Shown here in pieces: positions 9,426-44,989 of a DNA stretch of 64,000 nucleotides. A program made the translations under genes and the position numbers. Source of the DNA: an uncultured Acidobacteriota bacterium (GTDB lineage: Bacteria > Acidobacteriota > Vicinamibacteria > Vicinamibacterales > 2-12-FULL-66-21); assembly GCA_963776315.1 (NCBI GenBank), contig CAVZMJ010000010.1:148896-212895 (forward strand). The letters run 5' to 3'. How positions within the stretch are numbered: the stretch's first letter is position 1; the number at the start of each line of letters is the position of its first letter. Under the pieces are notes generated by a model. That model was given only the letters and a program-made list of their open reading frames with translations, had not been told where the DNA came from and did not search any database.

Positions 9426-9441
9426 GCGGGGACACTCAATC

Positions 9442-9478
9442 GGGACACTCAACCGTGACAGTCACGGTTGAGTGTCCC
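9442..9478. terminator. Perfect 18 bp hairpin between convergent genes (GGGACACTCAA family)
   Basis: gggacactcaaccgtgac / gtcacggttgagtgtccc, with an extra direct copy ggggacactcaa at 9428-9439. There is no T-tract, so it could be a bidirectional terminator or a repeat element. Confidence 0.5.
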
Positions 9479-9596
9479 CGCCGCGAGGATCGTGCCACGG
9501 GTCGCAGGAATTGAACGTTCCAGCGCCCTGGTGCTGGAGCAACACGACAGCTCACCGGCAAAGTGTCTTGAATTCAGACGCGCTCCGGACGTCCGT

Positions 9597-13935: not shown

Positions 13936-14002
13936 GGCGGTCCTCCTTCGTTAACGCTGAGATCTCAAACAGAGAGGCTGGGTGATTCCGGCCCCGTGTC
14001 CG

Positions 14003-14105
14003 CATTTCTCAATGCTCGTGGGGCCCCACCCCCACTCGCTCTCGCGCGGCGACTTCCGCCGTCGCTGCAGCTTCGGCGGACCGCCGTAGCCTTGGCGGAG
14101 GCTGG
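14003..14105. repeat. REP-like dispersed repeat (GGGGCCCCACCCCCACTCGCTCTC family plus GCTWCGGCGGWCCGCCGWAGC unit)
   Basis: gcatttctcaatgctcgtggggccccacccccactcgctctcgcgcggcgac is nearly identical to the reverse complement of 46674-46727 and similar to 17812-17870. The unit at 14070-14105 matches 44990-45024. Confidence 0.6.
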
Positions 14106-14139
14106 TCGCGCCGCGCTCGGGCGCAGGCGCTGCTGTCAG

Positions 14140-15626: not shown

Positions 15627-17087
15627 ATGATCGACCGACTTTGGTATCGCTCTCTCGCGCTGGGCCTCGTACTCGGCGTCGTCGTACCCGGACCAGCTGC
15701 GGCACAGGACGCGCCGCTCAACCTCGCCGAGCTGCTGCCTGACCTCATCCTTCGCGAAATCACGTTGCCCCGGCCGGTTACGGCCGGCTTGTCGCACGTG
15801 GCGCACTTCAGTCCGATCGACGCCGACGAGCTGGACAACCCGGCCGTCGACGTGGTTCGCAGCTTCAACACGCTGATGTTGATGCAGCTCTCGTCATTTC
15901 CGTTGGGGTCGCCGGCCGGCGGTTTCACCTACAAGTTCGACGAAACACTGGGCACGTTCCGGCGGTCGACACCCAGCTTCGGCCCCGTGTTTGCCGAGCG
16001 CGCCGTGACGATGGGCCGGAACCGGTTCAACGCGGGCTTCTCGTATCAGCACACGACATACCAGACCTTCGAAGGCCAGAACCTCGACGGCGGCGCGATC
16101 AAGTTCTACCTCCGCCACGAGGAATGCTGCTCGTCGGGCACTGGCGGCGGCACAGGGGGCGGCGGCGGGGGTAGCGGTGGCGGCGGCGGGCCCGTCGTGA
16201 CGCCGAATGACACGCGGTTCGACCCGCCGTTCGAAGGGGACCTCATCGAGGCGGCGCTCTCGATGAAGACCAGTACGGACACCGCCGTGTTCTCGTTGAA
16301 CTACGGCCTGACCGATCGCTGGGACGTCGGCCTGCTCGTCCCGCTCGTGCACGTCAAGATCGAGGCCGATGTCCAGGCGACCATCATGCGCCTCTCGACG
16401 GCCAACGATCCGCTCACGCACACGTTCGAGGCAGGCAACGCCGCGGCGACGCAGAAGAGCTTCCATGAAGGCGGCTCCGCGACGGGCGTCGGCGACGTCG
16501 TCGTGCGATCGCAGTACCGCTTTCTGGATTTCGCCGGCGGCGGCGTGGCGGGCGGCATCGACGTGCGGATGCCGACAGGCGATCAGAACAATTTGCTCGG
16601 CGCCGGTGGCCAGACCAAGATGTTCGCGATCGTGTCGGGCGGGAACGGCCGGTTCATGCAGCACGCCAACTTCGGCTATACCGCGACCTGGGGCTCGGTG
16701 CCGAACGTGGGCGTGCTCGCCACGCTCGGCGACGAATCGGCGTTGCCCGACGAGCTCAACTACGCGGCCGGCCTCGAGTTCGTCGTGGAGTCGCGGCTGA
16801 CGATTGTCGGCGACGTTCTCGGTCGGACGCTTCGCGACGCAGGCCGGCTGGAGGTCGTCAGCAAGCCGTTCCAGTACGTGACACGGAACGGCGGACCGGT
16901 TCAGGTCGTCAACTTTGACGAGTTCGACCCACGGCCGGGAAACCTGAACCTGACGCTCGGGACTATCGGCGCGAAATACAATCCGACGGGCAACCTGCTC
17001 ATTTCGGCCAGCGTTCTCTTCCCGATCAGCTCGTCTGGGCTCAAGAGCCGGGTGACGCCGGTTATCGGGGTTGACTACGCGTTCTAG
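15627..17087 (+). CDS. Outer-membrane beta-barrel protein, family not recognised
   Basis: GGAGG lies 4 nt before the ATG at 15627. Signal peptide ...PGPAAAQ, alternating beta-strand pattern and a terminal ...VIGVDYAF. Contains EECCSSGTGGGTGGGGGGSGGGGG. Confidence 0.65.
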   Translation: MIDRLWYRSLALGLVLGVVVPGPAAAQDAPLNLAELLPDLILREITLPRPVTAGLSHVAHFSPIDADELDNPAVDVVRSFNTLMLMQLSSFPLGSPAGGFTYKFDETLGTFRRSTPSFGPVFAERAVTMGRNRFNAGFSYQHTTYQTFEGQNLDGGAIKFYLRHEECCSSGTGGGTGGGGGGSGGGGGPVVTPNDTRFDPPFEGDLIEAALSMKTSTDTAVFSLNYGLTDRWDVGLLVPLVHVKIEADVQATIMRLSTANDPLTHTFEAGNAAATQKSFHEGGSATGVGDVVVRSQYRFLDFAGGGVAGGIDVRMPTGDQNNLLGAGGQTKMFAIVSGGNGRFMQHANFGYTATWGSVPNVGVLATLGDESALPDELNYAAGLEFVVESRLTIVGDVLGRTLRDAGRLEVVSKPFQYVTRNGGPVQVVNFDEFDPRPGNLNLTLGTIGAKYNPTGNLLISASVLFPISSSGLKSRVTPVIGVDYAF

Positions 17088-17232
17088 CGGCTCGCTGCTG
17101 GCTGCTCGCTGCTCGCTGCTCGCTGCTCGCTGCTGCTAATTAGCAACCGCTAGCCGCTAGCCGCCAGCCGCTAACTGCTAGCTGCCAGCTGCTGCTACTT
17201 AGCAACCGCTCGCCGCGAGTCGCGAGCCGCGA
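17088..17232. repeat. Heptamer tandem arrays (GCTGCTC)n followed by (GCTAGCC/GCCAGCC)n
   Basis: Strict 7 nt periodicity. Two direct copies of gctgctaNttagcaaccgct, each containing the palindrome gctaattagc or a variant. Fills the gap between convergent genes. Confidence 0.7.
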
Positions 17233-17811: not shown

Positions 17812-17890
17812 CATTTTTCAGCGCTCGCGGGGCCCCACCCCCACTCGCTCTCACTCGGCGTCTTCGCGCCTCGCTCGGGCCGCGGGCGCC
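17812..17890. repeat. REP-like repeat copy abutting the efp-like start codon
   Basis: tcagcgctcgcggggccccacccccactcgctctcactcggcg; same family as 14003 and 46674. Confidence 0.55.
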
Positions 17891-20420: not shown

Positions 20421-21918
20421 TCACCGATCGGCGTTCACCCATGTCGTCAGGCGCTGCGCCAGATACGGGAAGAACGGGTTCGATGTCACGCGCATCAACA
20501 CGTCGACGGGCACGGTCAGCACCGCGCGTTCGCCGCGCGGGCTGAGCAGTCCGAGCGCGACGGGCCCGCTCGGCGATTCCCGGGCCATGTTTCCGTAGAC
20601 GGGATCGTCTTCGGGAAACGGCAGCGCGACGTGCGAGAGCGAGAACGTGTCCCGCGGCCAGGCCAGGCCGAGCGTCTCGTCGACGGGCGTCGTCGAGCCC
20701 GGCGCCACATCGCGAGCGGCCACGTCGAGCGTGTCGGTGCGCGCGTTGGTCACGACCGTGATGCGATAGTTTCGCGCCCGCCTCTCGAAGAGCGTCGAGA
20801 TCAGCCTCTGATCCTCGGGCCGGATGAACTGGTCGAGCCTCGCGTGGCGGTTGATATCGAAGAGGACGAGAGCGCTGCCGTTCTGCGGCAGGCGATCGTA
20901 GAGGTTGGCCACGATCGCCGGCGTGCTGACGGTGGCGTCGACCAGGGACTGGAACGTCAGCACCGGAGGAAACGCGCTGAGCCGTCCGGCGGTTTCCAGC
21001 CGTGTGAGTCGCCGTTGCACATCGGTCGTGAGGTCGTACGTCTGCCGCCCGGCGTTGGCCGGGAACGAGTTGTACTTGAACGGGTTGTATTCGGGAATCA
21101 CGTCGAGCCAGCGCGCCTTCTCGAAGTAGGGAATGGGGCCGAGCGCGCTGATCACGCTCGCCAGGCGCGCCATCGGCGAGATGCCGATCATGGGCGAGAC
21201 GAGCATCAGGCGATCGGGACGGGGAAGCGACGAGTCCTCGAGGGCCTCGAGTGTGTAGCGCGTCACGAGCGCGCCGCCGTTCGAGTACCCGACGAGCACG
21301 AGCGGCAGGCCGGCCCCAATCCGTGACCGCACGTGGCGGACGCCCAGTCTGACGGCCGCATTCCAGTCGTCGGCTCCACTCTTCACGAGTCCCGCGGGCA
21401 CCGTGCCGTGCCCGGGCATCCGCAGCGCGAGTGAATAGTAGCCGTCAGCGCGGAGCTGCTCCGCGATCGCCCGCATGGAGTACCGGCGAATCCGTGAGGC
21501 CATGGATCAGAAGGGCGCCGCCCTTGAGCGTTTCCGGCTCGACCTCGTACGTCCGGTTGTAATCGCGATCGAGCCTTGACGGACTCGATCGGCTGGCCCG
21601 GACGTAGCGATTCACGGCGAAACTGCCGATCGGAGCAATCGCATCCTCGACCCCGGTCCGCACCTCGTCGAAGACCTGCTGTTCCCGCTTGAGGTAATCG
21701 GCCAGCGTGAACCGTTCGTCCATGTCAGCGGCGCGCAGTTCGCTCGGCGGCGCGTTCCTGTGCCACACCTGCAGATCGGCCAGGCGGAAACGCGCGTCGA
21801 CTGCCGCGCCGACGACAACCGTCGCGACGATGAGAAGGATGGCGAGTGAGAGCCAGATGGCCCACCGCAGCAGGCGGCGGGGCCAGGGTTTATGTGGTGC
21901 CGTCTCGATGCTGGTCAT
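20421..21918 (-). pseudogene. Alpha/beta hydrolase with N-terminal membrane anchor, one frameshift
   Basis: Track ORFs 21445..22002 and 20421..21503 join as ...GGALLIHGLTDSP|YSMRAIAEQLRADGYYSLALRMPGHG...GYSNGG. One extra base lies near 21486-21489 (tcgccGgtactcc on the coding strand). Confidence 0.7.
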
Positions 21919-21977
21919 GCGCGCAGTATATCCGGCCGCTTCGAAGTAGCATTGCTTCTCCAAGGAGCTCAGCAGAC

Positions 21978-22313
21978 ATGAACCGCAAGAGCCTGCCCGC
22001 ACTCGTCTTCGTGCTCGCGGCGGCCGGCATCGTCGCCACGCATGCCCGCCAGGATGCCAAAGCGGACGTAAAGAAGTGGGACGTCGCCGATCCCACCGGT
22101 CCTACGACGACGCTGGCCTTCGATACGAGCGAGGGCACGTGGATGAACGTCGACGTGAGCCCCGATGGCACGCAGGTGGTGTTCGACCTCCTGGGCGACA
22201 TCTATCTCGCGCCGATCGGCATGGTCATGATGAACGGCCGGCTGTACGACGGGAAGACGCTGGCCGAGATCGGTGCGACGAAACGGCCGGCGCCACGATT
22301 CTGGTGGGAGTGA
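21978..22313 (+). pseudogene. Internally deleted remnant of a large TolB-like beta-propeller/amidohydrolase protein
   Basis: 111 aa. The N-terminus KKWDVADPTGPTTTLAFDTSEGTWMNVDVSPDGTQVVFDLLGDIYLAPIG is joined directly to a C-terminal-type tail VMMNGRLYDGKTLAEIGATKRPAPRFWWE. Full-length relatives as I remember them are about 1000 aa. Confidence 0.55.
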
Positions 22314-22324
22314 GGATGTAAGCA

Positions 22325-22655
22325 GCGGAAGAGAACGAATAAGACTCAACACGAAGGAACGAAGCGAACGAAGACGCACGAAGACAACGAGCTGGCTTGG
22401 GTCCCTCTGCCGCTGGTCGCACCGCGCTTCGCGCGGTAGGCAGGGCGTGAGGCCGACGGATCACAAGCACTTCATGAATTTTGCGCGTGCTTGCGATCCG
22501 TCGGCCTCGCGCCCTGCCGTGACGCCGGCCCAAGGGCCGGCGAGCGACCAGCTCGGTGCCCAGTGCCCCGAGGCATACCGGATCTCTCCGTGCGTCTCCG
22601 TTTGCTTCGGTCCTTCGTGTTGAAACCGTTGTCTCCGTCCTCTCCGTCGCCCTCC
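22325..22655. mobile_element. Miniature (RT-less) copy of the palindromic element at 27490-28826
   Basis: Same inverted arms (tcaacacgaaggaacgaagcgaacgaagacgcacgaaga vs its complement at about 22585-22630). Same three hairpins, including the long stem 22439-22470/22487-22518. Confidence 0.65.
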
Positions 22656-22675
22656 AAAGTCCTGGCCGCACGCGG

Positions 22676-23677
22676 CTATTGCACGCCCGGAAGCGTAAGC
22701 TGCGCGCGCAGGCCGCCGGCGGACGAACGGTCGAGCGCGATCGTGCCGCCATAGAGGTCGGCGAGATCGCGGACGATCGCCAGCCCGAAGCCCGATCCCG
22801 GCGCGGCCTCGTCGGCGCGCACGCCGCGTTGAATCACGACGTCCCGCATCGATGGATCGAGTCCTGGTCCATCGTCATCGACCGTAATCACGATCGATTG
22901 GGGTCCCGCCACTGATTCGATCGACACGCGCGTCCGGCCCCATTTGCAGGCGTTGTCGAGCAGGTTGCCCAGCATCTCGTCGAGGTCCTCGCGCTGGCAG
23001 CGGACCGAATGCGTTGCCGGCACGCGGACGTCGATAGCGAGCCCGCGGTCGGCGTGGAGCCGGAGCATCGTCCGCGCCAGTCCCTCCGCCGATTCCGCGA
23101 CCTGACATCGGGCACCGGGCGTTGCGCCGGAGGCGGCGGCGCGCGCGTGTGCCAGGTGCGATTCCACCTGGCGCCTCATCCGCTCCACCTGCTGACTGAC
23201 GGCCTGGGCGAGCTCGTGTTGACCGGCGGCGGCCGCGCGCTCGGCCTCCTGCGACAGGACGGCCAGCGGCGTCTTCAGGCCATGCGCGAGGTCGCCGGCT
23301 CTCGCGACGGCTCGCCTGACCGCCTGCTCGCGGTGGTCGAGCAGGGCGTTCAGATCGTTGACCAGCGGCTGCACCTCGGCGGGGTAGTTGCCTTCGACGA
23401 GGCGTTCCCGCCCCTGATGAACAGCGGCCAACCGCACGCGCAGGCGATCGACGGCCGACAATCCGCTCCGCACGTAAACGAGGCCCGCGATCAAGCAGAT
23501 CAACGCGAAGACAGACGTCGCCGTCACGTGGAGGAATATGCCGTGGAAGACCCTGGGCGCGGTGGGATGCCGATAAATGATCTGGGTCATGACGACGCCA
23601 GCCACGGCGAACAGCCCGACCGTCCACAACACGGCCCCAAGGAGCACGCGGGTGCGCAGCGTAAACGCTGGTGTCAT
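22676..23677 (-). CDS. Sensor histidine kinase (two TM, HAMP, HisKA, HATPase)
   Basis: H-box DLAHGLKTPLAVL; G-boxes DDDGPGL and GSGFGLAIV. The start overlaps the response-regulator stop (ATGA). Confidence 0.9.
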   Translation of the reverse strand: MTPAFTLRTRVLLGAVLWTVGLFAVAGVVMTQIIYRHPTAPRVFHGIFLHVTATSVFALICLIAGLVYVRSGLSAVDRLRVRLAAVHQGRERLVEGNYPAEVQPLVNDLNALLDHREQAVRRAVARAGDLAHGLKTPLAVLSQEAERAAAAGQHELAQAVSQQVERMRRQVESHLAHARAAASGATPGARCQVAESAEGLARTMLRLHADRGLAIDVRVPATHSVRCQREDLDEMLGNLLDNACKWGRTRVSIESVAGPQSIVITVDDDGPGLDPSMRDVVIQRGVRADEAAPGSGFGLAIVRDLADLYGGTIALDRSSAGGLRAQLTLPGVQ

Positions 23678-24339
23678 GGGCCGTCCTGCGCGATCCGATA
23701 GCCCATCCCTCGCACTGTTTCGATGAACGACGGGCCCAGTTTGCGCCGCAGGCGCGCGATGAATACTTCCACCGTGTTCGAGTCCCGGTCGAAGCCCTGC
23801 GAGTAGATGTGCTCGGTCAGCTCGCCCTGCGAGACGAGGCGCCCGCGGTGGTGCATCAGGTAGGACAGCACGCGGAACTCGTGGCTCGTCAGCTTCACCG
23901 GCGTGCCGTTGCGGGTGACGCGCGCGGCACGCGGATCGAGCGCGACGGCGCCACAGCGAAGCTCGGGCGCAAACTGTCCGCTGGCGCGGCGGATGAGAGC
24001 GCGCAGGCGTGCCAGGACTTCCTCCATCCGGAACGGCTTCGCCACATAGTCGTCCGCGCCGCCGTCGATCCCCTGCACCTTCTCGTGCCAGCTTCCACGC
24101 GCCGTCAGGAGCAGTACGGGTATCGCCAGGCCCTCTTCACGCCATCTCCTCAGCACCGTCAGCCCATCCACTTTTGGCAGGCCGAGGTCGAGCACCACCG
24201 CGTCGTACCGTTCGGTCCTCCCGAGAAAGTCGGCTCGCTCGCCGTCGGCGGCGCAGTCGACCGCGTACCCGGCCTCGCCGAGCGCGGCTGCGAGCTGCCG
24301 CAACAGCTGCGCTTCATCTTCGACGACCAGGACTCGCAC
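23674..24339 (-). CDS. OmpR/PhoB-family response regulator
   Basis: VRVLVVEDEAQLL...VVLDLGLPKVDG...ADDYVAKPF plus a winged helix. The GTG at 24339 is preferred; the longest ORF extends to 24387. Confidence 0.9.
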   Translation of the reverse strand: MRVLVVEDEAQLLRQLAAALGEAGYAVDCAADGERADFLGRTERYDAVVLDLGLPKVDGLTVLRRWREEGLAIPVLLLTARGSWHEKVQGIDGGADDYVAKPFRMEEVLARLRALIRRASGQFAPELRCGAVALDPRAARVTRNGTPVKLTSHEFRVLSYLMHHRGRLVSQGELTEHIYSQGFDRDSNTVEVFIARLRRKLGPSFIETVRGMGYRIAQDGP

Positions 24340-24460
24340 CAGACCGTTATAGCCCAACCGAACCTGAACGGCACCTGAACGCCGCATTCACGCGCCATTC
24401 AGGGCCCCTTGGATACGCTCTCCCGGTCTAAACCACTCGAGACGACTCGAAACCACGCCC

Positions 24461-24586
24461 ATGACCAAGCGAACGCTCCTCATCGTCCTCGTCGCCGCCG
24501 CGCTGCTCGTCGTTGCCGCCATCGCGCTGCGAGGACACGGCGACGGCGCCCTGACGGACTGGTTCCAGCGGATCCATGGGCATTGA
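24461..24586 (+). CDS. Small membrane peptide (41 aa), hypothetical
   Basis: Own translation MTKRTLLIVLVAAALLVVAAIALRGHGDGALTDWFQRIHGH. Directly precedes the next ORF and is divergent from the two-component genes. Confidence 0.35.
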   Translation: MTKRTLLIVLVAAALLVVAAIALRGHGDGALTDWFQRIHGH

Positions 24587-24596
24587 GGAGAGATCG

Positions 24597-25013
24597 ATGA
24601 CGACCAGAACCGTCGCGTTGCTGACCTCGATCGCGCTGTCGGGTTTCGTACAGGCCAGTGAAGCCCGTGCTGTGACCACTGTTCAAGAGAAGAAGGCCGA
24701 CCAGAAAGCCGCGCCGGGCGTGGCCGGCCGCTGGGCGATGTTCGTCAAGGGTGGACCCCACGGCGACATGACGATGGGCCTGGAGCTGGCGCAGGAGGGC
24801 AAGAAAGTCAGCGGCACGTTTGCCACCCCGCACGGTGACATCAAGGTCGAGGGCGAATTCGTTGAAGCCAAGCTGACCATCGCTACTCCAATCGGTACCG
24901 AAACGCAGATCAGCCTGACCGCGAAGCTGAAGGACAACGGCACGCTCGAGGGATACCTCTCGAGCCAGATGGGCGACATGACCTGGACCGCCAGCCGCTC
25001 GATCGGCAAGTAG
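24597..25013 (+). CDS. Secreted small protein, hypothetical
   Basis: GGAGAG precedes the ATG at 24597. Signal peptide MTTRTVALLTSIALSGFVQASEA and protein-like composition. Confidence 0.6.
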   Translation: MTTRTVALLTSIALSGFVQASEARAVTTVQEKKADQKAAPGVAGRWAMFVKGGPHGDMTMGLELAQEGKKVSGTFATPHGDIKVEGEFVEAKLTIATPIGTETQISLTAKLKDNGTLEGYLSSQMGDMTWTASRSIGK

Positions 25014-25050
25014 CGTCGAGCGCCGGGCAGGGACACGACGCGAGGCCCCA

Positions 25051-27472
25051 TTGCAGTGGATTGAGTCGGCAGGCCGCGACGTGCGGCACGCGTGCCGCAT
25101 GGTCGCCCGGATGCCTGTCCTTGCGATGGTCGTCATCCTCTCGCTCGGCGTTGGCATCGGCGTCAACGTCGTCATCTTCTCGTGGATTCAAGCCGTCGTC
25201 TTTCAGCCGATTCCCGGCGTCGCCGACGCCGCGAGCTTTCACCTCGTCGAGCCGCGCACCGAGACGGGCATGAATCCGGGCACGTCCTGGCTCGAGTACC
25301 GCGATCTGCGGGAGCGCTTGCAGACGTTCCGCGATCTGCTGGCGTTTCGGATGACGCCGCTCTACGTCGGCGAGTCGGGACAGGTGGAGCGGGCGTACGG
25401 GCTGCTCGTCTCCGGCAACTACTTCACGGCCCTCGGTCTGCAGCCGGTTCGAGGCCGCTTCTTCCGTCTCGACGAGGCCGCCACTCCCGGCGGCGAACCG
25501 GTGGCGGTGATCTCTGCACGAGTACTGGCAGAGTCACCTCGCTGGTGCGCCGACGGCGGTGGGACAGAGGATTCGGGTCAACGGCCGCGACATCACCGTC
25601 GTCGGCGTCGCGCCGCAGGGGTTCCAGGGCACGGTACTGCGGCTGAAGTTCGATCTGTGGTTGCCGGCCACCATGGCGCAGGCGCTGCTCAACGGATCGC
25701 GAGAGCTCGACGAGCGTGGTGCCCGCGGCTATACAGCCACGGGCCTTCTCCGGCCTGGGACGACGCGCGAGCAGGCGCAGAGCGATGTGGACGGAGTGAT
25801 GCGGCAGTTGTCGCAGCAGTATCCCGAGACGAACGCCACCATGCAGGCCGAGGTGTTGCCGTTCTGGCAGTTCTCGCGCGGGCCGCAGCGTTTCCTGGTA
25901 ACGGCGCTCGCGTTTCTGCAGGCCATCATGCTGCTGCTCCTGGTCGCGGTGTGCGGCAACACGGCGAACCTCATGCTGGCGCGCGCCAGCGCCCGTCAGC
26001 GTGAGATGGGCATGCGGCTGGCGCTCGGCGCCGGACCCTGGCGTATCGTGCGCCTGCTGCTGGCGGAGAACCTGATGCTCGCGCTCGCCGGCGCGGCGCT
26101 GGGCATCGCGATCGGCGTCTGGGGAACGCGCGCACTGTCCGCGGTACCGCTGACGATCGGCTTGCCGATCAATTTCGAGACGCACGTCGACCTGGGCGGG
26201 CTCCTGTTCGCGGCGTCGCTCGGCCTCGCGTGCGGCGCGATCTTCGGGGCCGCCCCGGCATTTCATCTTGCACACCTGGACCCGCAGGTCGCGTTCCGCG
26301 CCGGCGCGTCGCCCGCTGGCCGCAGCCGGTTGCGCAACAGCCTCATGGCCGTCCAGGTGGCGCTGGCACTGATGGTGCTCGTGGCGGCAGGCCTTTTTCT
26401 CCGCAGCTTCCTCGAGACGCGCGACACCGACCCGGGCTTCCGCCGTGAAGGTGTGCTGCTCGCGGCCTACGATCTCACCGGCCGAAATGCTGACGATGGG
26501 TTTGCCCGCACGTTTGCCAGCCGGCTTCTCGACCGGCTGCGGGCATTGCCGTCGGTCGACGGCGTCGCCATTGCGTCGTCCATTCCGCTCGACATTCACG
26601 GACTGCCGTCCCGCGTCTTCAGCGTCGACGGCTGGGTGCGCGCGGCGTCGGGGTTCGATCAGGCGCTCGCGAACACGGTCACGCCAGGCTACTTCGCTGT
26701 GATGGACATTCCGCTCCTCGCGGGGAAGGATTTTGCCGACCTGCGCGACACGTCGACGCCTCCACAAGTCATCGTCAACGAGGCGTTCGTGCGGCGCTAT
26801 CTCGCCCGCCTCGAGCCGCTCGGCCGGCGCCTGCAGGCGCGCGGCCGGTCGTACGTGATTGCCGGCGTTGCCCGCAACTCGCTCTACAACGCCTTCGGCG
26901 AGCCGCCGACGCCCATCATCTACTTCTCGTACCGCGACGGCCCCACGCGCGTGGGAGAGATACACTTACGCACAAGGGCCGGAAGCGAGACGGCAGTCGC
27001 GTCAGCCGTGCGCAACACCGTGCGCGAGCTCGATCCCGAGCTGCCGGTCTACAACGTCAGGACGCTGACGGCCCACGTCGAGACCAGCCTGCTTTTCCGG
27101 CGCATTCCTGCGCGGATGTTCGCCGTCCTCGGGCCCATGCTCCTCGTGCTGGCAGCGATCGGGATCTACGCCGTCGTGTCCTACACCGTGTCGCAACGGA
27201 CGACCGAGATCGGCGTGCGCCTCGCGCTCGGCGCGACGCCACAGGGCGTCGTCGCCCAGTTCGCGCGCGAGAGCCTGTTCGTCATCAGTGTCGGCGCGCT
27301 GGCCGGCTGGGCGATCGCCTTGAGCGCGCTCATCGTCCTTCGGGGCCCGATGGACGTCGCGATTCTTGCCGGCGTGCCGGCACTCCTGATGACGGTGGCG
27401 GCCAGCGCCTGCTGGCTGTCAGCGCGTCGTGCCGCACGCTGCGATCCGATGGCCGCGCTGCGCCAGCAGTAG
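25051..27472 (+). pseudogene. ADOP family duplicated permease, one frameshift
   Basis: ORF 25051..26004 is genuine to ...GGEPVAVIS. The sequence continues in the frame of ORF 25559..27472 as HEYWQSHLAGAPTAVGQRIRVNGRDITVVGV. One extra base at about 25516 (atc tct G cac gag). Confidence 0.8.
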
Positions 27473-27489
27473 AGTTGCCGGAGGGGACG

Positions 27490-28826
27490 CTTCGGAGGAG
27501 ACGAAGCGAACCGGAGAAGACTCGACACGAAGGAACGAAGCGAACGAAGACGCACGAAGACAACGAGCTGGACTCGAGTCCCTGCAGCTGGTCGCACCGC
27601 GCTTCGCGCGGTCGGCTGGGCGTGAGTGGCGACGGATCACAAGCACTCCGTGAATCCTGCTCGTGCTTGTGATCCGTCGCCACTCACGCCCAGCCGTGAC
27701 GCCGGCCAAGGCCGGCGTTCGACAGCCGACGGCAGTGCCCGCAGGGGCTAGCCCCGTCGGCGCGGTCCGGGCCCGGTGGGTGTGGACCGCACCTGAAGTG
27801 TGGACGGAGCGGATGCTGACGGCGCTCGAACAGGGCGTCAGAGGAGGCCGATGGTACACGTTGATGGACAAGGTCTATGCGCTGCCAACGCTGCGGGCCG
27901 CCTTCGCGCGAGTGAGGGCGAATCGCGGGGCGGCTGGTGTGGACCATGTGACGATCGCGATGTATGAGGCGCGACTCGACGCGAATCTCGCCGCGCTGTC
28001 GGCGTCGTTGCAGGACGGCACCTACCGCCCGCAGCCGATTCGCCGGCACTGGATTCCGAAAGGGCCGCGCGAGCGGCGCCCCCTCGGGATTCCGACCGTG
28101 CGGGACCGCGTCGTGCAAACCGCTCTGCGTCTGGTCGTGGAACCGATCTTCGACGTCACGTTCGCCGAGCACAGCTACGGCTTTCGTCCGCGTCGGGGCG
28201 CCAAGGCTGCGCTCCGCCGGGTGAACGCGTTGCTGCGCGCCGGCTATCGTTACGTCGTGGACGCGGACCTCCAAGCCTACTTCGACACCATCCCGCTCGC
28301 ACCGCTGCGCGCGCGGGTGGCGGCGAAGGTCAGCGACAGTCGGGTGCTCGCCCTCGTCGACGCCTTCCTGCACCAGCCCATCGTCGAGGGGCTGGCGCAG
28401 TGGACGGTCGAGGAGGGGACCCCGCAAGGCGCGGTCATCAGCCCCGTGCTCGCCAATCTGTATCTCGACCCGCTCGACCACGCGATGGTCGCGGCGGGCT
28501 TCGAGATGGTGCGCTACGCGGACGACTTCGTCGTCCTGTGTCGCACAGCGGACGAAGCGCAGCAAGCACTGGCGGTCGTGCAGCGCTGGACGGCAGCGGC
28601 AGGGCTGCGGCTGCATCCCGAGAAAACACATCTCGTGGACCTGCAGTCCCCGGGCGGCTTTGACTTTCTCGGCTACCACTTCGAGCGGCGCTATCGTCTG
28701 CCGCGCACGAAGAGTCTGCGGAAGCTCAACAGCTCAGCGCGCAGTGCCCGAACCATTCCCGGATCTCTCCGTGCGTCTTCGTTCGCTTCGTTTCTTCGTG
28801 TTGAACCCGTTGCCTCCGTCGCCTCC
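27490..28826. mobile_element. About 1.3 kb palindromic element carrying a truncated reverse transcriptase ORF
   Basis: Inverted arms 27495-27571 and 28760-28826 (core roughly 40 of 44 matching by eye). Three hairpins at 27596-27716, then the RT ORF. Imperfect direct repeats ending in gcagtgcccg at 27732-27741 and 28741-28750 bracket the RT segment. Confidence 0.65.
27614..27695 (+). other. Perfect 33 bp stem with 16 nt loop upstream of the RT (candidate structured RNA or DNA hairpin)
   Basis: ggctgggcgtgagtggcgacggatcacaagcac / gtgcttgtgatccgtcgccactcacgcccagcc. Flanked by accgcgc-ttc-gcgcggt (27596-27612) and gccggcc-aa-ggccggc (27701-27716). Confidence 0.6.
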
Positions 28827-28856
28827 AATGCCACGCACTCTCCACTTCCGATTTGA
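27663..28856 (+). CDS. Group-II-intron-type reverse transcriptase, lacking thumb/maturase (X) and endonuclease regions
   Basis: WTERMLTALEQGVRGGRWYTLMDKVYALPTLRAAFARVRANRGAAGVDHVTI (RT0/1), RRPLGIPTVRDRVVQ, GFRPRRG, GTPQGAVISPVLANLYLDPLD, RYADDFVVLC, LHPEKTHLV, GFDFLGYHF. The homologous part ends at ...RLPRTKSLRKL and the rest reads through the right arm. The real start is probably ATG 27813 or a nearby GTG. Confidence 0.8.
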   Translation: MLVIRRHSRPAVTPAKAGVRQPTAVPAGASPVGAVRARWVWTAPEVWTERMLTALEQGVRGGRWYTLMDKVYALPTLRAAFARVRANRGAAGVDHVTIAMYEARLDANLAALSASLQDGTYRPQPIRRHWIPKGPRERRPLGIPTVRDRVVQTALRLVVEPIFDVTFAEHSYGFRPRRGAKAALRRVNALLRAGYRYVVDADLQAYFDTIPLAPLRARVAAKVSDSRVLALVDAFLHQPIVEGLAQWTVEEGTPQGAVISPVLANLYLDPLDHAMVAAGFEMVRYADDFVVLCRTADEAQQALAVVQRWTAAAGLRLHPEKTHLVDLQSPGGFDFLGYHFERRYRLPRTKSLRKLNSSARSARTIPGSLRASSFASFLRVEPVASVASNATHSPLPI

Positions 28857-28924
28857 CGCCGCCAGCAACGTTGGATACTGTGCGAATGCTCGGCGGCTCT
28901 TCCGCTGGTGCTTCAGGAGACGAC

Positions 28925-29437
28925 ATGGACCAATCTCAGGCACAGTTTCTCGCCCAGTATCTCTGCAAGCTCTGGGAAGGCGAGTTCCCCGCGACGCTCA
29001 AGGTCATCGCCGCGGTCCCCGACGACAAGCGCACGTATCGTCCAGACGAGAAGTCCCGCACGGCCTGGCAGCTGGCGACGCACCTCGCGACGGCTGACAT
29101 CTGGTTCGCCGACAGCGTTGTCGCGGGCAGTTTCGTGTTCGATCCCGCGGTCGCCAAGCAGCGCGAGTCGCTGTTCGGATCGGTCGCGGACGTCGTCGCC
29201 TACTACAAGAAGGAATTTCCCGCCGCGCTCGACCGCGTCCGCGCGATACCCGCCGACAAGCTGGCGGCCACGGTGGACTTCTTCGGCGTCATGCAGATGC
29301 CGAATGTGACCTACCTCGGCTTCGCCAACAACCACTCGGTGCATCACCGCGGCCAGCTGGCCGCGTACCTCCGCGCGATGGGGTCGAAGGTGCCGGCGAT
29401 CTACGGCGACAGCGCCGACGAGAAGATGGGCGGGTGA
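28925..29437 (+). CDS. DinB family protein
   Basis: MDQSQAQFLAQYL...WQLATHLATADIWF...NNHSVHHRGQLAAYLRAMG is a DinB-type His triad pattern. Confidence 0.8.
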   Translation: MDQSQAQFLAQYLCKLWEGEFPATLKVIAAVPDDKRTYRPDEKSRTAWQLATHLATADIWFADSVVAGSFVFDPAVAKQRESLFGSVADVVAYYKKEFPAALDRVRAIPADKLAATVDFFGVMQMPNVTYLGFANNHSVHHRGQLAAYLRAMGSKVPAIYGDSADEKMGG

Positions 29438-29519
29438 TCGTTCGCGAGGCAACGGAAGTGGCCGACCAGCCTCCGCTTGCCCCGACCTCGTCAGCTTCGG
29501 GATAGAGTAGTGGTGACTC

Positions 29520-30227
29520 ATGTCCACTGACTACTCGACCCTCGAAGGCGCGCTCGTTTCCGCGGTTGGTCCTCTCCGCCTGATCGCCGTCTCGTATCTG
29601 TCAGCCGCTCCACAGGGAGTGGAGCAGTTCTCGGGCACGGTTCCGTCCGGGTGCACGTTCTGGAGCCTCGCCGCGAGCGGCAACGGCTTCTACACGGTGC
29701 CGGACGATCACCTGAACTGTCCGATCGGCAGCTACACGCACGCGATCGATCGGCCCGCCGGCCGCGAGGCGGAGCTCGAGCAGGCGCTGACGCTGATGGC
29801 GGGCATCGGCTACGTGCGGATGGAAGAGGTTCCTGCGATTCCGCGCCTGGCGAAGTCGCCCGCGTTCATCTATTACGCTCCGCTCGGGAAGGCGGTCGTC
29901 GCGCCCGACGTGATCATCGCGGCTGGGCGGCCGGGGCCGCTGATGCCGCTCCAGGAAGCTGCCGCGCGCGCCGGCGCCGCGTCACAGCTCCCGTTGCTCG
30001 GCCGTCCGACGTGCATGGCGCTACCCGCGGCGATGGCTCACGGATCGGTCATGAGCACCGGTTGCGTCGGCAACCGCGTCTACACCGGCCTCGGCGACGA
30101 TGAGCTCTATTTGATGATTCCTGGTCCGCGGCTTGCGGATGTTGTGAAGGAGCTCGCGGTGATCACGACCGCGAACGACACGCTGCTGCAGTATCACGAG
30201 CAGCGCCGCGCGACGCTGACATCGTAG
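29520..30227 (+). CDS. DUF169-like protein
   Basis: 235 aa with conserved Cys pattern (SGCTFW, LNCPIGSYTH, RPTCMALP, STGCVGNRVY) as I recall for DUF169. Confidence 0.6.
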   Translation: MSTDYSTLEGALVSAVGPLRLIAVSYLSAAPQGVEQFSGTVPSGCTFWSLAASGNGFYTVPDDHLNCPIGSYTHAIDRPAGREAELEQALTLMAGIGYVRMEEVPAIPRLAKSPAFIYYAPLGKAVVAPDVIIAAGRPGPLMPLQEAAARAGAASQLPLLGRPTCMALPAAMAHGSVMSTGCVGNRVYTGLGDDELYLMIPGPRLADVVKELAVITTANDTLLQYHEQRRATLTS

Positions 30228-30366
30228 CTTGCTGCTCGCTGCTCGCTGCTCGCTGCTCGCTGTTGCCAACCCGGGCCGCCAGCCGGGAGCCGCCAGCGGG
30301 GAGCCGCCAACCCGAGCCGCCAGTCGCCAGCCGCGACCGGCGAGCCGCCGCCCGTCAGCCGCGGAC
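30228..30366. repeat. Heptamer tandem arrays (GCTGCTC)4 followed by (GAGCCGCCA/AGCCGSS)n
   Basis: Same first motif as 17088-17140. Starts right after the DUF169 stop. Confidence 0.6.
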
Positions 30367-30370
30367 TAGA

Positions 30371-30424
30371 GGTCTTGACCCTCCAGAACTTGTCCATTTT
30401 GCGTCAAGTTTCTCGGGTCAAGAC
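30371..30424. terminator. Hairpin ggtcttgaccc ... gggtcaagacc between convergent genes
   Basis: 11 bp stem with a 32 nt loop. A second 10 bp stem ctagcgaggc/gcctcgctag at 30460-30503 spans the stop of the minus-strand gene. Confidence 0.35.
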
Positions 30425-30499
30425 CGTCCCGCGTCAGCGGGCGTTATCAAGAATGCAACCTAGCGAGGCGGAGCCTCGTGGGTCTGAGGCGCAGCCTCG

Positions 30500-30769
30500 C
30501 TAGTACTCCGCCATCTCATCGTCGGGATAGCAGTAGAGCCACCGCTCCCCCGGCTCGGCGGACGCGACGACCGGATGTCCGCTGGTGCGGGCGTGCTTGG
30601 TCGCGTGCTGGTTCGGCGACGAGTCGCAGCAGAGCGTGGCGCCGCACGACTGGCACGTGCGGAGGTGGACCCAGCGGGCCCCAATCTTGACGCACTCCTC
30701 GCAGCGCCGTGCCTTCGCGTGCTTGACGTCGGTGATCACGTTGATGTGTTGACAGACTTGGGAAGCCAT
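30500..30769 (-). CDS. UBP-type zinc-finger domain protein
   Basis: MASQVCQHINVITDVKHAKARRCEECVKIGARWVHLRTCQSCGATLCCDSSPNQHATKHARTSGHPV. The rest of track ORF 30500..31450 is an antisense artefact. Confidence 0.8.
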   Translation of the reverse strand: MASQVCQHINVITDVKHAKARRCEECVKIGARWVHLRTCQSCGATLCCDSSPNQHATKHARTSGHPVVASAEPGERWLYCYPDDEMAEY

Positions 30770-30801
30770 AGTCGTGTTGTGCCCGCGAATTGCCCCGGCG
30801 C

Positions 30802-32403
30802 CTACGAGGCCGCCGTGCCCGTCAGTTCTTCGTAGGTGCCCTTGAAGTCCACGATCTTGCCGTCCTCGAAGTGCCACACGCGGGTGCCGACTTCTTCGAG
30901 CAGATCCTGGTCGTGGGTCACGAGCAGGACCGTGCCCTCGAACTTCTGGAGCGCGACGTTCAGGGCGTTGATCGACTCGAGGTCCAGGTGGTTCGTCGGC
31001 TCGTCGAGGATGAGGACGTTCGGCTTGAGAAGCATGATGCGGCAGAAGAGCAGCCGCGCCGTTTCGCCGCCCGACAGCGCCTCGGTCGGCTTGAGGCCTT
31101 CCTCGCCGCTGAAGAGCATCTGACCGAGCAGCCCGTGAATCTCCTGGCGCGCCGCGTCGGGGTCGAACTGGTGCAGCCACTCGACTGCGGTCAATCCCTT
31201 CTCGATTGCGCCAGTGTGATCCTGGGGGAAGTAGCCGATCGAGACCTCGTGCCCCCACCGGATCGATCCGCTGTCCAGATCCGCCGGCGACGCTGGCCGA
31301 TCGGGCGCGTCCGCGAGCAGCGCCTTGAGCATCGTCGTCTTGCCGACGCCGTTCCTGCCGACCAGAACGATCTTCTCGCCGCGGTTGACGATCGCGCTGA
31401 AATTCTTGATCACCTTCAGGGGGCCATGGGCCTTGTTGAGACCCTTGCACTCGAACGGCACTTTGCCCGACGGGCGCTTGGTCGTGAACTTGATGTAGGG
31501 ACGCTGGATGTTGGATCGGGCCAGCTCGGTCGTCTGCAGCCGCTCGACCTCCTTGCGCCGCGACGTGACCTGGCTCGCCCGTGTGCCGGCGCCGAACCGC
31601 GCGATGAAGTCGTTGAGCTGCGCGATCTTCTTCTCGCGCTGCGCGTTGTCGGCTTCGATCGTCGAGCGGATCTGCGTCTTGGCGAGCACCATGTCGTCGT
31701 AGCCGCCGGTATACGTGATGATCGTCTGGTAGTCGATGTCGGCGATGTGCGTGCAGACCTTGTTCAGGAAGTGCCGGTCGTGCGAGATCACGATGAGCGT
31801 GCCCTGATAGCGCTCGAGGAACGACTGCAGCCAGTGGATCGAGTCGAGGTCGAGGTGGTTCGTCGGCTCGTCGAGCAGCAGCGCCTCAGGGCTCCCGTAG
31901 AGCGCCTGCGCCAGGAGCACGCGGACCTTCTGACCGCCTTGCAGCTCAGCCATCTTGCGATCGTGCAGCGCGTCGGGGATGTCGAGCCCCTGCAGGAGCA
32001 CGGCGGCGTCGCTCTCGGCCGAGTACCCGTCCTCCTCGCCGACGATGCCCTCGAGCTCGCCGAGCCGCATGCCGTCGTCGTGCGTCATGTCGGGCTTTTC
32101 GTAGAGCGCGTCCCGTTCCTTGAGCGCGTTCCACAACCGCTCGTTGCCCATGATGACGGTGTCGGTGACCCGATAGTCGTCGAAGGCGTACTGATCCTGT
32201 CGCAGCACGCCGAGCTTGCGCGGCCGGCTGACCGTGCCTCGTTGCGGCTGGGTCTCGCCCGTCAGGAGCTTCATGAAGGTGGACTTGCCGGCCCCGTTCG
32301 GGCCCGTGAGGCCGTAGCGCCGGCCCGCCGAGAACGTCGTCGTGACCTCCTCGAAGAGGATCTTCGACCCGAACCGCATGGAAACGCCGCTGACCGAAAT
32401 CAT
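30802..32403 (-). CDS. ABC-F family ATPase (YbiT/EttA-like)
   Basis: Two ABC cassettes: GPNGAGKST / LSGGQKVRV and GRNGVGKTT / LSGGETARL. No TM domain. Confidence 0.9.
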   Translation of the reverse strand: MISVSGVSMRFGSKILFEEVTTTFSAGRRYGLTGPNGAGKSTFMKLLTGETQPQRGTVSRPRKLGVLRQDQYAFDDYRVTDTVIMGNERLWNALKERDALYEKPDMTHDDGMRLGELEGIVGEEDGYSAESDAAVLLQGLDIPDALHDRKMAELQGGQKVRVLLAQALYGSPEALLLDEPTNHLDLDSIHWLQSFLERYQGTLIVISHDRHFLNKVCTHIADIDYQTIITYTGGYDDMVLAKTQIRSTIEADNAQREKKIAQLNDFIARFGAGTRASQVTSRRKEVERLQTTELARSNIQRPYIKFTTKRPSGKVPFECKGLNKAHGPLKVIKNFSAIVNRGEKIVLVGRNGVGKTTMLKALLADAPDRPASPADLDSGSIRWGHEVSIGYFPQDHTGAIEKGLTAVEWLHQFDPDAARQEIHGLLGQMLFSGEEGLKPTEALSGGETARLLFCRIMLLKPNVLILDEPTNHLDLESINALNVALQKFEGTVLLVTHDQDLLEEVGTRVWHFEDGKIVDFKGTYEELTGTAAS

Positions 32404-33677
32404 GACGAGAAGCCTTCCGTTGATGCCAAACCCTTAATTGTAGCAGAAGCCCCCAGCCCGGCCGCTCGGCCCGTGGCCCAGGCCCAGAGGAAGTTGTAAC
32501 CGCCGATCGGTCCGAAGGCGTCGAGCATCTCTCCGCACAGGAAGAGGCCTTTGTGCTTCCGGCTCTCCATCGTCCTGGGGTCGACCTCGCTCAGGCTGAC
32601 ACCGCCGCCGGTCACCTCGGCCTTCTTGTAGCCTTCATCGCCGGTCCAGGGCAGCACGCCGCGAACGAGGAGATCGATCAGCCGCAGTCGATCGGCGCGG
32701 CTGAGGTGGGCGAGCGACTGCCGCGGATCGATCCCGGCGGCATCGATCAGGGCCTCGGCGAGACGAAGCGGCAGGTCGGCGCTGACGGCCGTGAGAACCG
32801 TGCGCGTGCCCTGGGGTTTCAGCGCTGCCTTCCACGCCTCCTCGCCACGTACCGTCCAGCGCACCTTGATCACGGCAGGAGACATCGCCTCCGCGCGAGA
32901 TCGCACCGCAACGTGAGACACGTCGAGGACGGCCGGCCCGCTGTAGCCATGGTGCGTGAAGAGAAAGCCGCCGGTTGCCGTCGACGAGAGACCATTCGCG
33001 CGCGCCGTGATCGTTATTGGCAGCGACACCCCCGACAGCGACGCGAACGGCGCCGGGCTGGCCGTGAGCGGAGTCAATGCGGGATAGGTTGGCTGGATGG
33101 CGTGGCCCAGCGCTTCAGCGATGCGCAGGCCGCCGCCGTCGCTGCCCGTGCTCGGCACCGAGAGTCCGCCGGTAGCGATGACGAGCGCATCGGCGTGTAA
33201 CGGTTCGGCATCGTGAATGTCGATGCGCCAGCCGCTGCCCTGGGGGCGGAATCCAATGACGGTCGTATTCATCAGAATGCGCGCGCCGCGCCGTCGTGCG
33301 AGGTCCAGCAGGCGATCGCGAACGTCCCTTGCCCGTTGCGACGCAGGGAAGAGCTTTGCCGACTCCACCTCTTCGACGAGCGGCATTCCGAGCTCTCGTT
33401 CGAAGAATGCGATCTGTTCCCTGAGCGGCCACGAACGCACGATGCGGCGGACGAGATGAGGCGGGGCCTCACTGACGAATCGTGACTCGTCGAGTCGGGC
33501 CGGCAGGATATTGCATCGCCCTCCGCCGCTGATGAGGATCTTGCGCCCGCCGTCGGCCGTGCGCTCGAGGAGCACTGTGTCGGCGCCCGAGGCCGCGGCG
33601 AAGATCGCCGCCATCGTGCCGGCCGCCCCCGCGCCAATGACAACGACGCGGGCGGTGCTCGAAGCGGGATCGGTCAT
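32400..33677 (-). CDS. HI0933/BaiN-like NAD(P)/FAD-dependent oxidoreductase
   Basis: VVVIGAGAAGTMAAIFAA ... ILISGGGRCNI. The stop overlaps the ABC-F start (ATGA). The ATG at 33677 is preferred over the GTG at 33683. Confidence 0.85.
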   Translation of the reverse strand: MTDPASSTARVVVIGAGAAGTMAAIFAAASGADTVLLERTADGGRKILISGGGRCNILPARLDESRFVSEAPPHLVRRIVRSWPLREQIAFFERELGMPLVEEVESAKLFPASQRARDVRDRLLDLARRRGARILMNTTVIGFRPQGSGWRIDIHDAEPLHADALVIATGGLSVPSTGSDGGGLRIAEALGHAIQPTYPALTPLTASPAPFASLSGVSLPITITARANGLSSTATGGFLFTHHGYSGPAVLDVSHVAVRSRAEAMSPAVIKVRWTVRGEEAWKAALKPQGTRTVLTAVSADLPLRLAEALIDAAGIDPRQSLAHLSRADRLRLIDLLVRGVLPWTGDEGYKKAEVTGGGVSLSEVDPRTMESRKHKGLFLCGEMLDAFGPIGGYNFLWAWATGRAAGLGASATIKGLASTEGFSS

Positions 33678-34854: not shown

Positions 34855-34904
34855 GGATAACAGGGATACAACGAGTTGGCCGCGATCGCAAGCGCCGTGA
34901 TTTT

Positions 34905-35200
34905 GGGGACGCGGATCTCGCGGATCACCGCACGCCCACAGGACGCGGATCACTCCGGGACACGGATTACTACGGGACGCGGATTACGCGGATCACTGCG
35001 GGACACGGTTGCGCGGATCCGCTAGGACGTAGTTCGTCGATCGCCGACGGGGTGTGTTCCAGCAGAGCGGACCCCAATCACAGAGGAAGATTCGCGCAAT
35101 CCGCGTCCTTTGAAAACCGTGATCCGCGACCGCTCCGCAACCGTGTCCGCGAAATCCGCTCCGTGACCTGATTTGAATCCGCGAGAATCCGCGTCCGAGC
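34905..35200. repeat. About 300 bp palindromic element with GGGACGCGGATCAC-type arms
   Basis: Left arm 34905-35015 (gggacgcggatc units) and right arm about 35090-35200 (gatccgcg units) around a loop of about 75 nt. Confidence 0.6.
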
Positions 35201-38926: not shown

Positions 38927-39023
38927 GGCTCAGGGCTCAGGGCTCAGGGCTCAGGCAAAACCTTCGACCACATACTCGAGGGTTCTGGCTTGGCCCTGAG
39001 CCCTGAGCCCTGAGCCCTGAGCC
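38927..39023. repeat. GGGCTCA-heptamer palindromic element
   Basis: (ggctcag)x4-gcaaaacc ... core ttcgaccacatactcgagg ... ggcc-(ctgagcc)x4. Confidence 0.8.
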
Positions 39024-39092
39024 TTCCCCTTCGCCTCCCACTTCACTTGACACCCCAGTGAACAAGTGTCAGGCTGAGACGACTCCACTGCG

Positions 39093-42151: not shown

Positions 42152-42248
42152 GGGATCAGGGATCAGGGATCAGGAAGAGCATTCAAGGCTTAGCCCGCTC
42201 GGCTGAGATCTGAACGCTCTTCCCGATCCCTGATCCCCGATCCTTGAA
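42152..42248. repeat. GGGATCA-heptamer palindromic element
   Basis: (gggatca)x3-ggaagagc ... gctcttcc-cgatccctgatccccgatcc. An extra attcaagg/ccttgaat pair lies in the loop and after the right arm. Confidence 0.7.
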
Positions 42249-44887: not shown

Positions 44888-44989
44888 CGTTGCAGTCTCC
44901 TCCCGATTTCTGCTAACGCCGGGCCCCATCACGAATCGTCTGCCGTCTTCTTGGTCGAGCCCAGGTCCGGCTGACCAGCTTCCGCTGAA

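Follow-up and report, generated by a model that had tools for sequence, protein, structure and literature searches.

Within a 64,000-nucleotide (nt) stretch of an uncultured Vicinamibacterales genome (contig CAVZMJ010000010.1, positions 148,896 to 212,895; hereafter the window), a palindromic element occurs twice, as a short copy (22325-22655) and as a long copy (27490-28826) that contains an additional 1-kb segment with a reverse transcriptase (RT) reading frame. The original prediction regarded the short copy as an RT-less miniature of the long one. We find it probable that the short copy is instead an empty palindrome and that the long copy is a palindrome of the same kind holding a dead fragment of a group IIC intron, placed at the homing site of that intron family in one step that involved template switching. 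The element itself is a repeated intergenic DNA palindrome of a narrow clade of soil Acidobacteriota, represented by Vicinamibacteria-like metagenome-assembled genomes (MAGs).

Both window copies have the same outer inverted arms and the same three hairpins (hp1, hp2 and hp3), as had been proposed. Four occurrences of the arm core ACACGAAGGAACGAAGCGAACGAAGACGCACG exist in the window, where none would be expected by chance; they form two inverted pairs (22349/22589 and 27525/28770). When the 1006-nt segment is taken out, the two elements align end to end with 88.3% identity (279/316); they are thus real, diverged copies, and an artefactual duplication during assembly is ruled out. The features of both copies are as follows, with the arms assigned to no strand.

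Short copy
22325-22388, no strand: 5' arm, an outer inverted repeat of ACG(A/G)AG units; its best-paired core, 22346-22384, is 39 nt long and 90% complementary to 22585-22623 (repeat finder)
22412-22420, plus strand: 5' strand of the closing stem P1, GCTGGTCGC
22422-22436, plus strand: hp1 (CCGCGC-TTC-GCGCGG), invariant in the element family
22439-22518, plus strand: hp2, a 32-bp stem with arms 22439-22470 and 22487-22518 that are 94% complementary; the apex AAGCAC..GTGCTT is conserved, the lower stem hypervariable yet paired
22524-22541, plus strand: hp3 (GCCGGCC-loop-GGCCGGC), the stem-loop predicted to be the target determinant of the IIC intron
22544-22552, plus strand: 3' strand of P1, GCGACCAGC, containing the unoccupied homing site, with intron-binding site 1 (IBS1) CGAC at 22545-22548 and the insertion point between 22548 and 22549
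22549-22570, plus strand: single repeat CAGCTCGGTGCCCAGTGCCCCG, native spacer of the element
22585-22655, no strand: 3' arm, core 22585-22623

Long copy
27490-27563, no strand: 5' arm, core 27522-27560, 39 nt, 92% complementary
27587-27611, plus strand: 5' strand of P1 (27587-27594) and hp1 (27597-27611)
27613-27696, plus strand: hp2, a perfect 34-bp stem with arms 27613-27646 and 27663-27696, 100% complementary
27701-27723, plus strand: hp3 (27701-27716), spacer GTT and IBS1 CGAC (27720-27723), the end of the 5' exon
27724-28729, plus strand: internal fragment of a group IIC intron open reading frame (ORF), 1006 nt, codons about 8-344 of 442, with the YADD motif at 28515-28526
28730-28750, plus strand: repeat R2, the intact start of the 3' exon (remainder of the P1 3' strand, CAGC, and native spacer)
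28766-28826, no strand: 3' arm, core 28766-28804

The RT segment is a piece of an intron protein

The translated fragment ORF matches RVT_1 (E = 2e-36) as its only Pfam domain, with no GIIM, and reaches 319.9 bits with TIGR04416 (group II RT/maturase; cut-off 300), where the match covers profile positions 4-282 of 353 only. The fragment retains the RT fingers/palm domain with motifs 0-7, including YADD, and has neither a start codon of its own nor an X/maturase (thumb) domain. It corresponds to residues 8-344 of a 442-residue protein, P0001, at 96% identity; beyond that point, the frame diverges into element sequence and continues through the 3' arm. In a search of 5.8 billion proteins, all close homologues were about 442 residues long, combined RVT_1 with GIIM and belonged to Vicinamibacterales. 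Two full-length intron-encoded proteins (IEPs), P0001 (442 residues) and P0122 (443 residues), fall into the same 90% cluster as P0121, the public gene call at the locus (347 residues, 27813-28856), which starts at an internal ATG. The introns that encode P0001 and P0122 could be the donors, located in the same MAG or in a sibling one. Among the related loci listed for P0001, only relatives with 56-66% identity appear, and none lies within this element.

No group II ribozyme accompanies the fragment: neither RF00029 nor any other intron model matched the window at the gathering threshold, or positions 22000-29200 at E<=10, and the Rfam matches obtained in these searches were chance miRNA-like hairpins only. 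The fragment frame is free of frameshifts and stops over 337 codons and carries no indel relative to a complete intron on contig L086, which suggests that the fragment arrived recently. The RT segment is evidently a non-functional internal piece of a group IIC intron protein and not the element's own gene; it is a new yet unremarkable case among the numerous dead fragments of group II introns. For annotation, this makes the 347-residue "reverse transcriptase" at 27813-28856 a pseudogene fragment and not a retron, a defence RT or an active intron.

An autonomous RT retroelement, retron-like or new, with the short copy as its non-autonomous miniature generated by deletion between direct repeats, is scarcely credible on these grounds. 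The inverted arms, the small hairpins and the long hairpin beside an RT ORF do superficially resemble a retron with its msr-msd and RT, and imperfect repeats do bound the RT segment. However, the RT of the window is of the group II intron type, lacks a start codon and the thumb/maturase domain, runs into an arm, and is enclosed by the inverted repeats instead of following them downstream. With the fragment ORF, retron RT models reach 28.8-43.6 bits, far under their cut-offs of 235-600 (43.6 versus 235 for the best); as DNA, the segment shares 92% identity with the central part of complete IIC introns. Moreover, the element is multicopy and nearly always without RT, as seen in about 45 copies and at an orthologous locus.

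Complete introns define the homing site

Window positions 27723-28729 align with positions 3022-4028 of L086/L087 at 92% DNA identity, and there they lie in mid-ORF of complete introns. These introns match RF00029 (domains V and VI, D5-D6) with 56 bits and begin with GTGCG (GUGCG in RNA). Upstream, they are flanked by a 5' arm of ACGGAG units, hp1, hp2 and hp3 (GCCGGCC..GGCCGGC), and downstream by a spacer of ~30 nt followed by the 3' arm; their hp2 is quite different from that of the window in sequence, yet still fully paired. The intron boundaries, GACGCGAC/GTGCGCC...CCCTAT/CGGT (slashes mark junctions here and below), are fixed because empty elements with the same exons exist (L217 and L218 for L086; L220 for L087), and they delimit an intron of 1869 nt. 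L221 and L223 show the same arrangement, with a complete 1869-nt intron in the element family. Thus, where the original prediction had envisaged intermediate copies with a complete RT, the family does contain complete introns (L086, L087/L221 and L223).

The full-length introns are inserted 8 nt past hp3 (CGAC/C), and the homing site consists of hp3 (8-9 bp), a spacer of 2-3 nt, the 4-nt IBS1 CGAC and the 1-nt IBS3 C, with no IBS2. Exon-binding site 1 (EBS1, GUCG) of these introns matches the CGAC site, and an alignment of intron 5' parts reveals covariation of EBS1 and IBS1 over three target sites (GTCG/CGAC, ATCC/GGAT and TCCGG/CCGGA). The IEPs of L086/L087/L221/L223 comprise 442-444 residues with RVT_1 and GIIM only and no endonuclease domain. 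Their best matches in the PDB are IIC RTs (6ar1, 229 bits; 7uim, 189 bits), ahead of IIB (148 bits) and IIA (130 bits), as ranked by bit scores and not by a phylogeny. In the ribozyme of the full-length relatives, RF00029 is the sole family match, with no match to a family covering D1-D4. A target composed of stem, spacer, 4-nt IBS1 and 1-nt IBS3 is that of group IIC introns (PMC10190682, PMC3898094, PMC4424553). Because of the endonuclease-less IEP, the stem/spacer/IBS1/IBS3 layout and the closest solved relatives being IIC RTs, we classify the intron family as group IIC-like, and hp3 together with the 2-3-nt spacer, CGAC and the next C is, as judged from these sequences, the DNA target of this family.

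Related introns also occur after GC hairpins in palindromes with other heptamer arms, in L222 (CGCAGAG arms) and L224 (CAGGAGA arms). The intron of L222 sits after an hp1-like hairpin and not after hp3 of its host palindrome; it seems to lack domain VI (positions ~2835-2960), D5 being directly followed by GATCCATGAGCCGGCC.

The fragment lies between intact exons opposite an empty orthologous site

The long copy reads hp3-GTT-CGAC/AGCCGACGG...(ORF)...GGAAGCTCAA/CAGCTCAGCG, with the fragment junctions GTTCGAC/AGCC... and ...CTCAA/CAGCTCAG. Both exons are intact, and their ends (CGAC, then C) are the same as in occupied and empty relatives. By this comparison, the window fragment sits exactly at the predicted homing site of the family. 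Such placement of an intron-internal fragment precisely between intact exons is unusual.

The RT segment is indeed bracketed by imperfect direct repeats, whose coordinates we refine slightly to 27723-27741 for R1 (CAGCCGACGGCAGTGCCCG) and 28730-28750 for R2 (CAGCTCAGCGCGCAGTGCCCG), and the short copy holds one repeat at 22549-22570, as proposed. The local alignment of R1 and R2 scores 11 (p ~0.007 against random 30-mers of the window); a 10-mer common to the fragment and a random 40-mer arises in 9% of trials and hence is not rare. R1 is intron ORF sequence: it codes for QPTAVPA, L086 has CAGTCGACCACAGTGCCCG at that place, and R1 is also present in full-length introns in unrelated exons. R2, by contrast, is native element sequence that is also found in the RT-less short copy, L002 and L004. 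As one repeat stems from the intron ORF and the other from the element, they do not represent a target duplication, and in all likelihood they were not the substrate of a deletion either. Of the two origins first suggested for the size difference, insertion with target duplication fails on this point, and deletion between the repeats very probably does so as well.

A sister genome provides the orthologous locus. L002 (MFD02242.bin.2.257) is syntenic with window 24000-33000 at ~87% identity, and in it the flanks of the segment are contiguous: positions 1-254 of the long copy correspond to L002 4532-4279, and positions 1261-1389 to L002 4278-4150. Its single repeat is R2-like over the whole length and not the hybrid expected of recombination between R1 and R2; a deletion between them would fit only with a crossover in the first four bases. 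The L002 locus and the short copy both represent the unoccupied state. Thus, a 1-kb indel flanked by similar sequences does relate the long and short copies, but the short form is not a derived miniature. Since RT-less copies abound and the orthologous locus is empty, we conclude that the short form is likely the basic, abundant element and that the long copy arose by invasion of such an element at the homing site.

Precise loss would reverse this polarity: the common ancestor of the window genome and MFD02242.bin.2.257 would have carried the fragment or an intron, which the L002 lineage then excised exactly. R1 and R2 do share CAGC...GCAGTGCCCG as a possible mediator of deletion, and gene conversion from empty copies is possible, the element being 97% identical across species. 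Yet recombination within the 10-nt block would have left the left half of R1, CAGCCGACG, whereas L002 has CAGCTCAGTG; and the fragment, whose 337 codons are uninterrupted by frameshifts or stops and which lacks indels versus L086, speaks for a recent arrival, against a flank divergence of ~13%. We therefore regard precise loss as improbable.

The element is a covarying palindrome, probably maintained as DNA

Arm-pattern scans recovered ~25 copies of the element in five Microflora Danica Acidobacteriota MAGs and 26 further copies in JGI metagenomes, with arm-to-arm distances of 80-305 nt. None of these copies has cargo between its arms, be it an intron, a fragment, an RT or anything else, nor does any arm pair among them enclose a transposase. 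A scan with the hp1 pattern, GGTCGSRCCGCGCN{3,4}GCGCGG, proved too generic in high-GC genomes and gave 117 loci with few real elements (L126, L169 and L170). In the family, arms of ~60 nt made of ACG(A/G)AG units surround a cloverleaf of P1, hp1, hp2 and hp3, with an hp2 stem of 30-35 bp. Folded as a single sequence, the element gives this cloverleaf with z = -12 on either strand.

Covariation was evaluated with a covariance model built on the core, to which 24 full copies were aligned; such a model-fitted alignment favours the structure. In this alignment, 37/56 pairs are changed on both sides, including 29/32 in hp2 and 6/9 in P1. Paired cells amount to 96.4%, compared with 32-40% when the partners are slid, and on all five measures 0/500 shuffles attained the observed value. 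An independent MAFFT alignment likewise shows double changes in 13/18 upper hp2 pairs. P1 forms a perfect stem of 8-12 bp (6-7 bp in two copies) in 33/35 copies, in at least six sequence versions, and is kept whether it encloses one, two or three hairpins. Whereas hp1, hp3 and the hp2 apex (AAGCAC..GTGCTT) are invariant, the hp2 arms are complementary to 92% within an element and to 61% between elements. Independent variation of the two arms, which would have spoken against the original prediction, is not seen among the 24 copies. In the outer arms, the sequence itself is conserved throughout the family; complementarity is 85% within and 81% between elements, and many A/G mismatches are tolerated. 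The first bases of the window fragment, AGCC (window 27720-27733), partly restore pairing with the P1 5' strand, so that the long copy can still be aligned to the covariance model over its full length.

Between the two window copies, hp2 (returned by the repeat finder at the coordinates first proposed for the short copy) differs by one A-T to T-A swap, one C-G to G-C swap and one base pair added on both arms (GCC/GGC versus TGGC/GCCA). The claim of compensatory change is borne out by these differences but not by two uncompensated transitions in the short copy, which leave one G.U and one A.C mismatch. Mutagenesis of hp2 like that of diversity-generating retroelements was considered and ruled out, the differences being mirrored on both arms and not adenine-specific.

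Mismatches are distributed symmetrically between the strands. On the plus strand, hp2 contains 15 G.U and 17 A.C mismatches beside 517 Watson-Crick pairs, and the arms contain 62 G.U and 72 A.C mismatches. This symmetry points to maintenance of a DNA palindrome and agrees with the templated maintenance of the hairpin that had been put forward. Hence, hp2 pairing may be kept at the DNA level, where template switching could correct a quasi-palindrome and/or selection could favour a DNA hairpin; that selection acts on an RNA transcribed from one strand is less probable. Copies also differ by the gain or loss of entire hairpins. At L004 124-344, the ortholog of the short copy, the flanks are conserved while the core from hp1 to hp3 is inverted and hp2 is missing; this state fits an inversion by recombination between the arms plus deletion of a hairpin.

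A structured non-coding RNA gene or 3'-untranslated-region element, under selection at the RNA level and with an intron that merely exploits hp3, would account for the very strong covariation in P1 and hp2, for the invariance of hp1, hp3 and the hp2 apex, for the predicted fold (z = -12) and for an element more conserved between species than its neighbouring genes. But the two strands fold to the same degree, G.U mismatches are as frequent as A.C mismatches, the core of L004 lies in the opposite orientation to its two flanks when compared with the window's short copy, and entire hairpins come and go. Scans of the element for a sigma-70-like promoter, and on both strands of hp1 and hp3 for an intrinsic terminator (GC hairpin plus U tract), found neither; Rfam yields no match, and the family is multicopy with arms resembling terminal inverted repeats. 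An RNA gene is accordingly a distinctly unlikely explanation.

Between the window (27470-27723 and 28730-28858) and L002 (4150-4532), the element is 95-97% identical, with hp2 identical in 34/34 pairs, compared with 86-88% for the flanking genes. A function of the element is conceivable in view of this difference in conservation (95-97% versus ~87%). Both window copies are also present at orthologous loci, with no presence/absence polymorphism seen, and the arm ends show no clear target-site duplication.

Proposed origin of the fragment

We favour template switching by an RT as the route by which the fragment reached the homing site. It would have entered in a single step, in the lineage of the window. 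Both exon ends would be set exactly by the ribozyme, acting on DNA through reverse splicing or on a transcript through splicing or spliced-exon reopening. Switching templates end to end, the intron RT would then copy the 3' exon, a broken ORF RNA and the 5' exon into one cDNA, whose structure would be precisely that of the long copy, and this composite cDNA could be fixed in the chromosome at the target or by recombination through flanking homology. The similarity of R1 and R2 may have helped strand annealing. Group II RTs are known to make such end-to-end switches, passing from one template to the 3' end of a second (PMC3898094). A one-step route of this kind calls for no activity beyond those already known.

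The alternative of stepwise decay posits that a complete intron retrohomed and then suffered two independent deletions, one of 470 nt at the 5' side (ribozyme domains I-IV and codons 1-7) and one of 393 nt at the 3' side (ORF C-terminus and domains V-VI). In its favour, bacterial genomes often contain fragmented group II introns (PMC4496777), the fragment occupies a canonical homing site, and L222 apparently holds an intron without D6. However, each of the two deletions would need to have stopped 0-1 nt from an exon junction without damage to the exons, and the orthologous locus in L002 is cleanly empty, with no intron remnant. Nor are there direct repeats at both junctions that would have mediated deletion: AGCTCA and CGAC occur nearby, but the 3' junction still has two copies of AGCTCA, and at the 5' junction no more than 1 nt is shared. 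With both copies of AGCTCA and CGAC retained, a simple repeat-mediated deletion does not fit, and we judge stepwise decay unlikely.

Several points weigh against an empty palindrome that acquired its insert by template switching. The candidate donors, the closest full-length relatives P0001 and P0122 (96% amino-acid identity), were compared as proteins. Neither an intermediate nor a second example was found among ~50 copies. The similarity of R1 and R2 (p ~0.007) has no necessary role in the template-switch model and is only partly explained by it. The polarity derives from one orthologous comparison plus parsimony, with precise loss in the L002 lineage as the improbable alternative weighed above. 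The conservation of the element (95-97%) relative to genes (~87%) suggests constraint or recent gene conversion, for which a passive palindrome is insufficient. Finally, a structured RNA read from both strands would also yield a symmetric mismatch spectrum.

If template switching did place the fragment, group II RTs would insert non-intron or partial RNA at homing sites in vivo, a route by which they could write arbitrary RNA fragments into such sites. It is a tentative and rather doubtful proposition that palindromes with ACG(A/G)AG or other heptamer arms constitute an undescribed class of structured repeats that serves as a dedicated multicopy landing pad for a IIC intron lineage; the insert would then preserve, in a natural genome, the trace of an RT that switched templates between exon ends cut by the ribozyme and a broken intron RNA.

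Relation to known introns and repeats

The complete introns of L086/L087/L221/L223 resemble group IIC introns such as B.h.I1, GsI-IIC and E.r. IIC in that they insert a few nucleotides downstream of a GC-rich DNA stem-loop, begin with GUGCG, recognize an IBS1 of 4-5 nt and an IBS3 of 1 nt, and encode a 442-residue IEP with RT and X domains and no endonuclease. In contrast to those introns, the window holds an internal ORF fragment only, without a ribozyme. Their stem-loop also differs and is a less usual target, being neither an intrinsic terminator (no U tract) nor an attC site but one of the hairpins in a multicopy palindrome of cloverleaf shape, whose closing stem contains the insertion point. 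A conserved hairpin in a multicopy, covarying DNA palindrome would be a third kind of natural IIC target beside terminators and attC, and would offer the intron many neutral landing sites.

A comparable arrangement is that of RmInt1 and ISRm2011-2, where a repeated element provides an endonuclease-less intron with many safe places to land and dead intron fragments persist in the genome (PMC4496777). RmInt1, however, is IIB-like and has a long, sequence-specific site in a transposase-bearing insertion sequence, as opposed to a hairpin in a non-coding palindrome. Moreover, intron fragments are usually described as having lost the 3' end alone, whereas the window fragment is without both ends.

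As in REP (repetitive extragenic palindromic) sequences and REPINs, and in MITEs (transposable elements of the miniature inverted-repeat kind), the element is short, non-coding, intergenic, multicopy and strongly palindromic, with family-specific terminal inverted arms; these arms, of ~60 nt and conserved across ~50 copies in the five MAGs and the metagenomes, are a feature of MITEs. It differs in being much larger (200-330 nt), in a core that branches into as many as three hairpins within a closing stem, and in arms made of tandem 7-9-nt units. No RAYT (TnpA-REP) or transposase partner was found with the copies recovered. Bacterial palindromic repeats are known as targets of other mobile elements (PMC1525189, PMC3116915). 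In the literature searched, we found no description of heptamer-armed palindromes or of Vicinamibacteria repeats. The palindrome family combines conserved arms with an invariant hp1, hp3 and hp2 apex and a hypervariable yet paired hp2, and it is more conserved than the neighbouring genes.

Neighbouring sequences and other repeats in the window

Upstream of the short copy, window 21846-22313 (junction near 22216) contains an ORF that is what is left of a gene. Its ortholog in L004 (490-3420) is longer by ~2.9 kb between the parts that match the window up to 22216 and from 22213 to 22315.

The window is rich in other intergenic palindromes, whose arms consist of tandem, family-specific heptamers and whose centres are mostly short. 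Palindromes of GGCTCAG units lie at 38927-39025, 48437-48549, 51640-51718, 56113-56219 and 61482-61563, one of GGATCAG units at 42153-42243, and those of GCTCGCT/GCTAGCC type at 17076-17207 and 30220-30292; a further palindrome, at 9427-9654, has GGGACACTCAA arms. Short repeats, ACGGGACGCGGATTACGCGGATCACTG, form tandem-like clusters beside heptamer-armed palindromes at 34904-34998 and 51552-51609. Another family of repeats (CATTTCTCAATGCTCG..GGGGCCCCACCCCC.., next to which lie GC hairpins) is found in both orientations at 13998-14107, 17812-17889, 44973-45030 and 46647-46729; a JGI metagenome contig (L239 2479-2562) matches window 46646-46729 with 98.8% identity.

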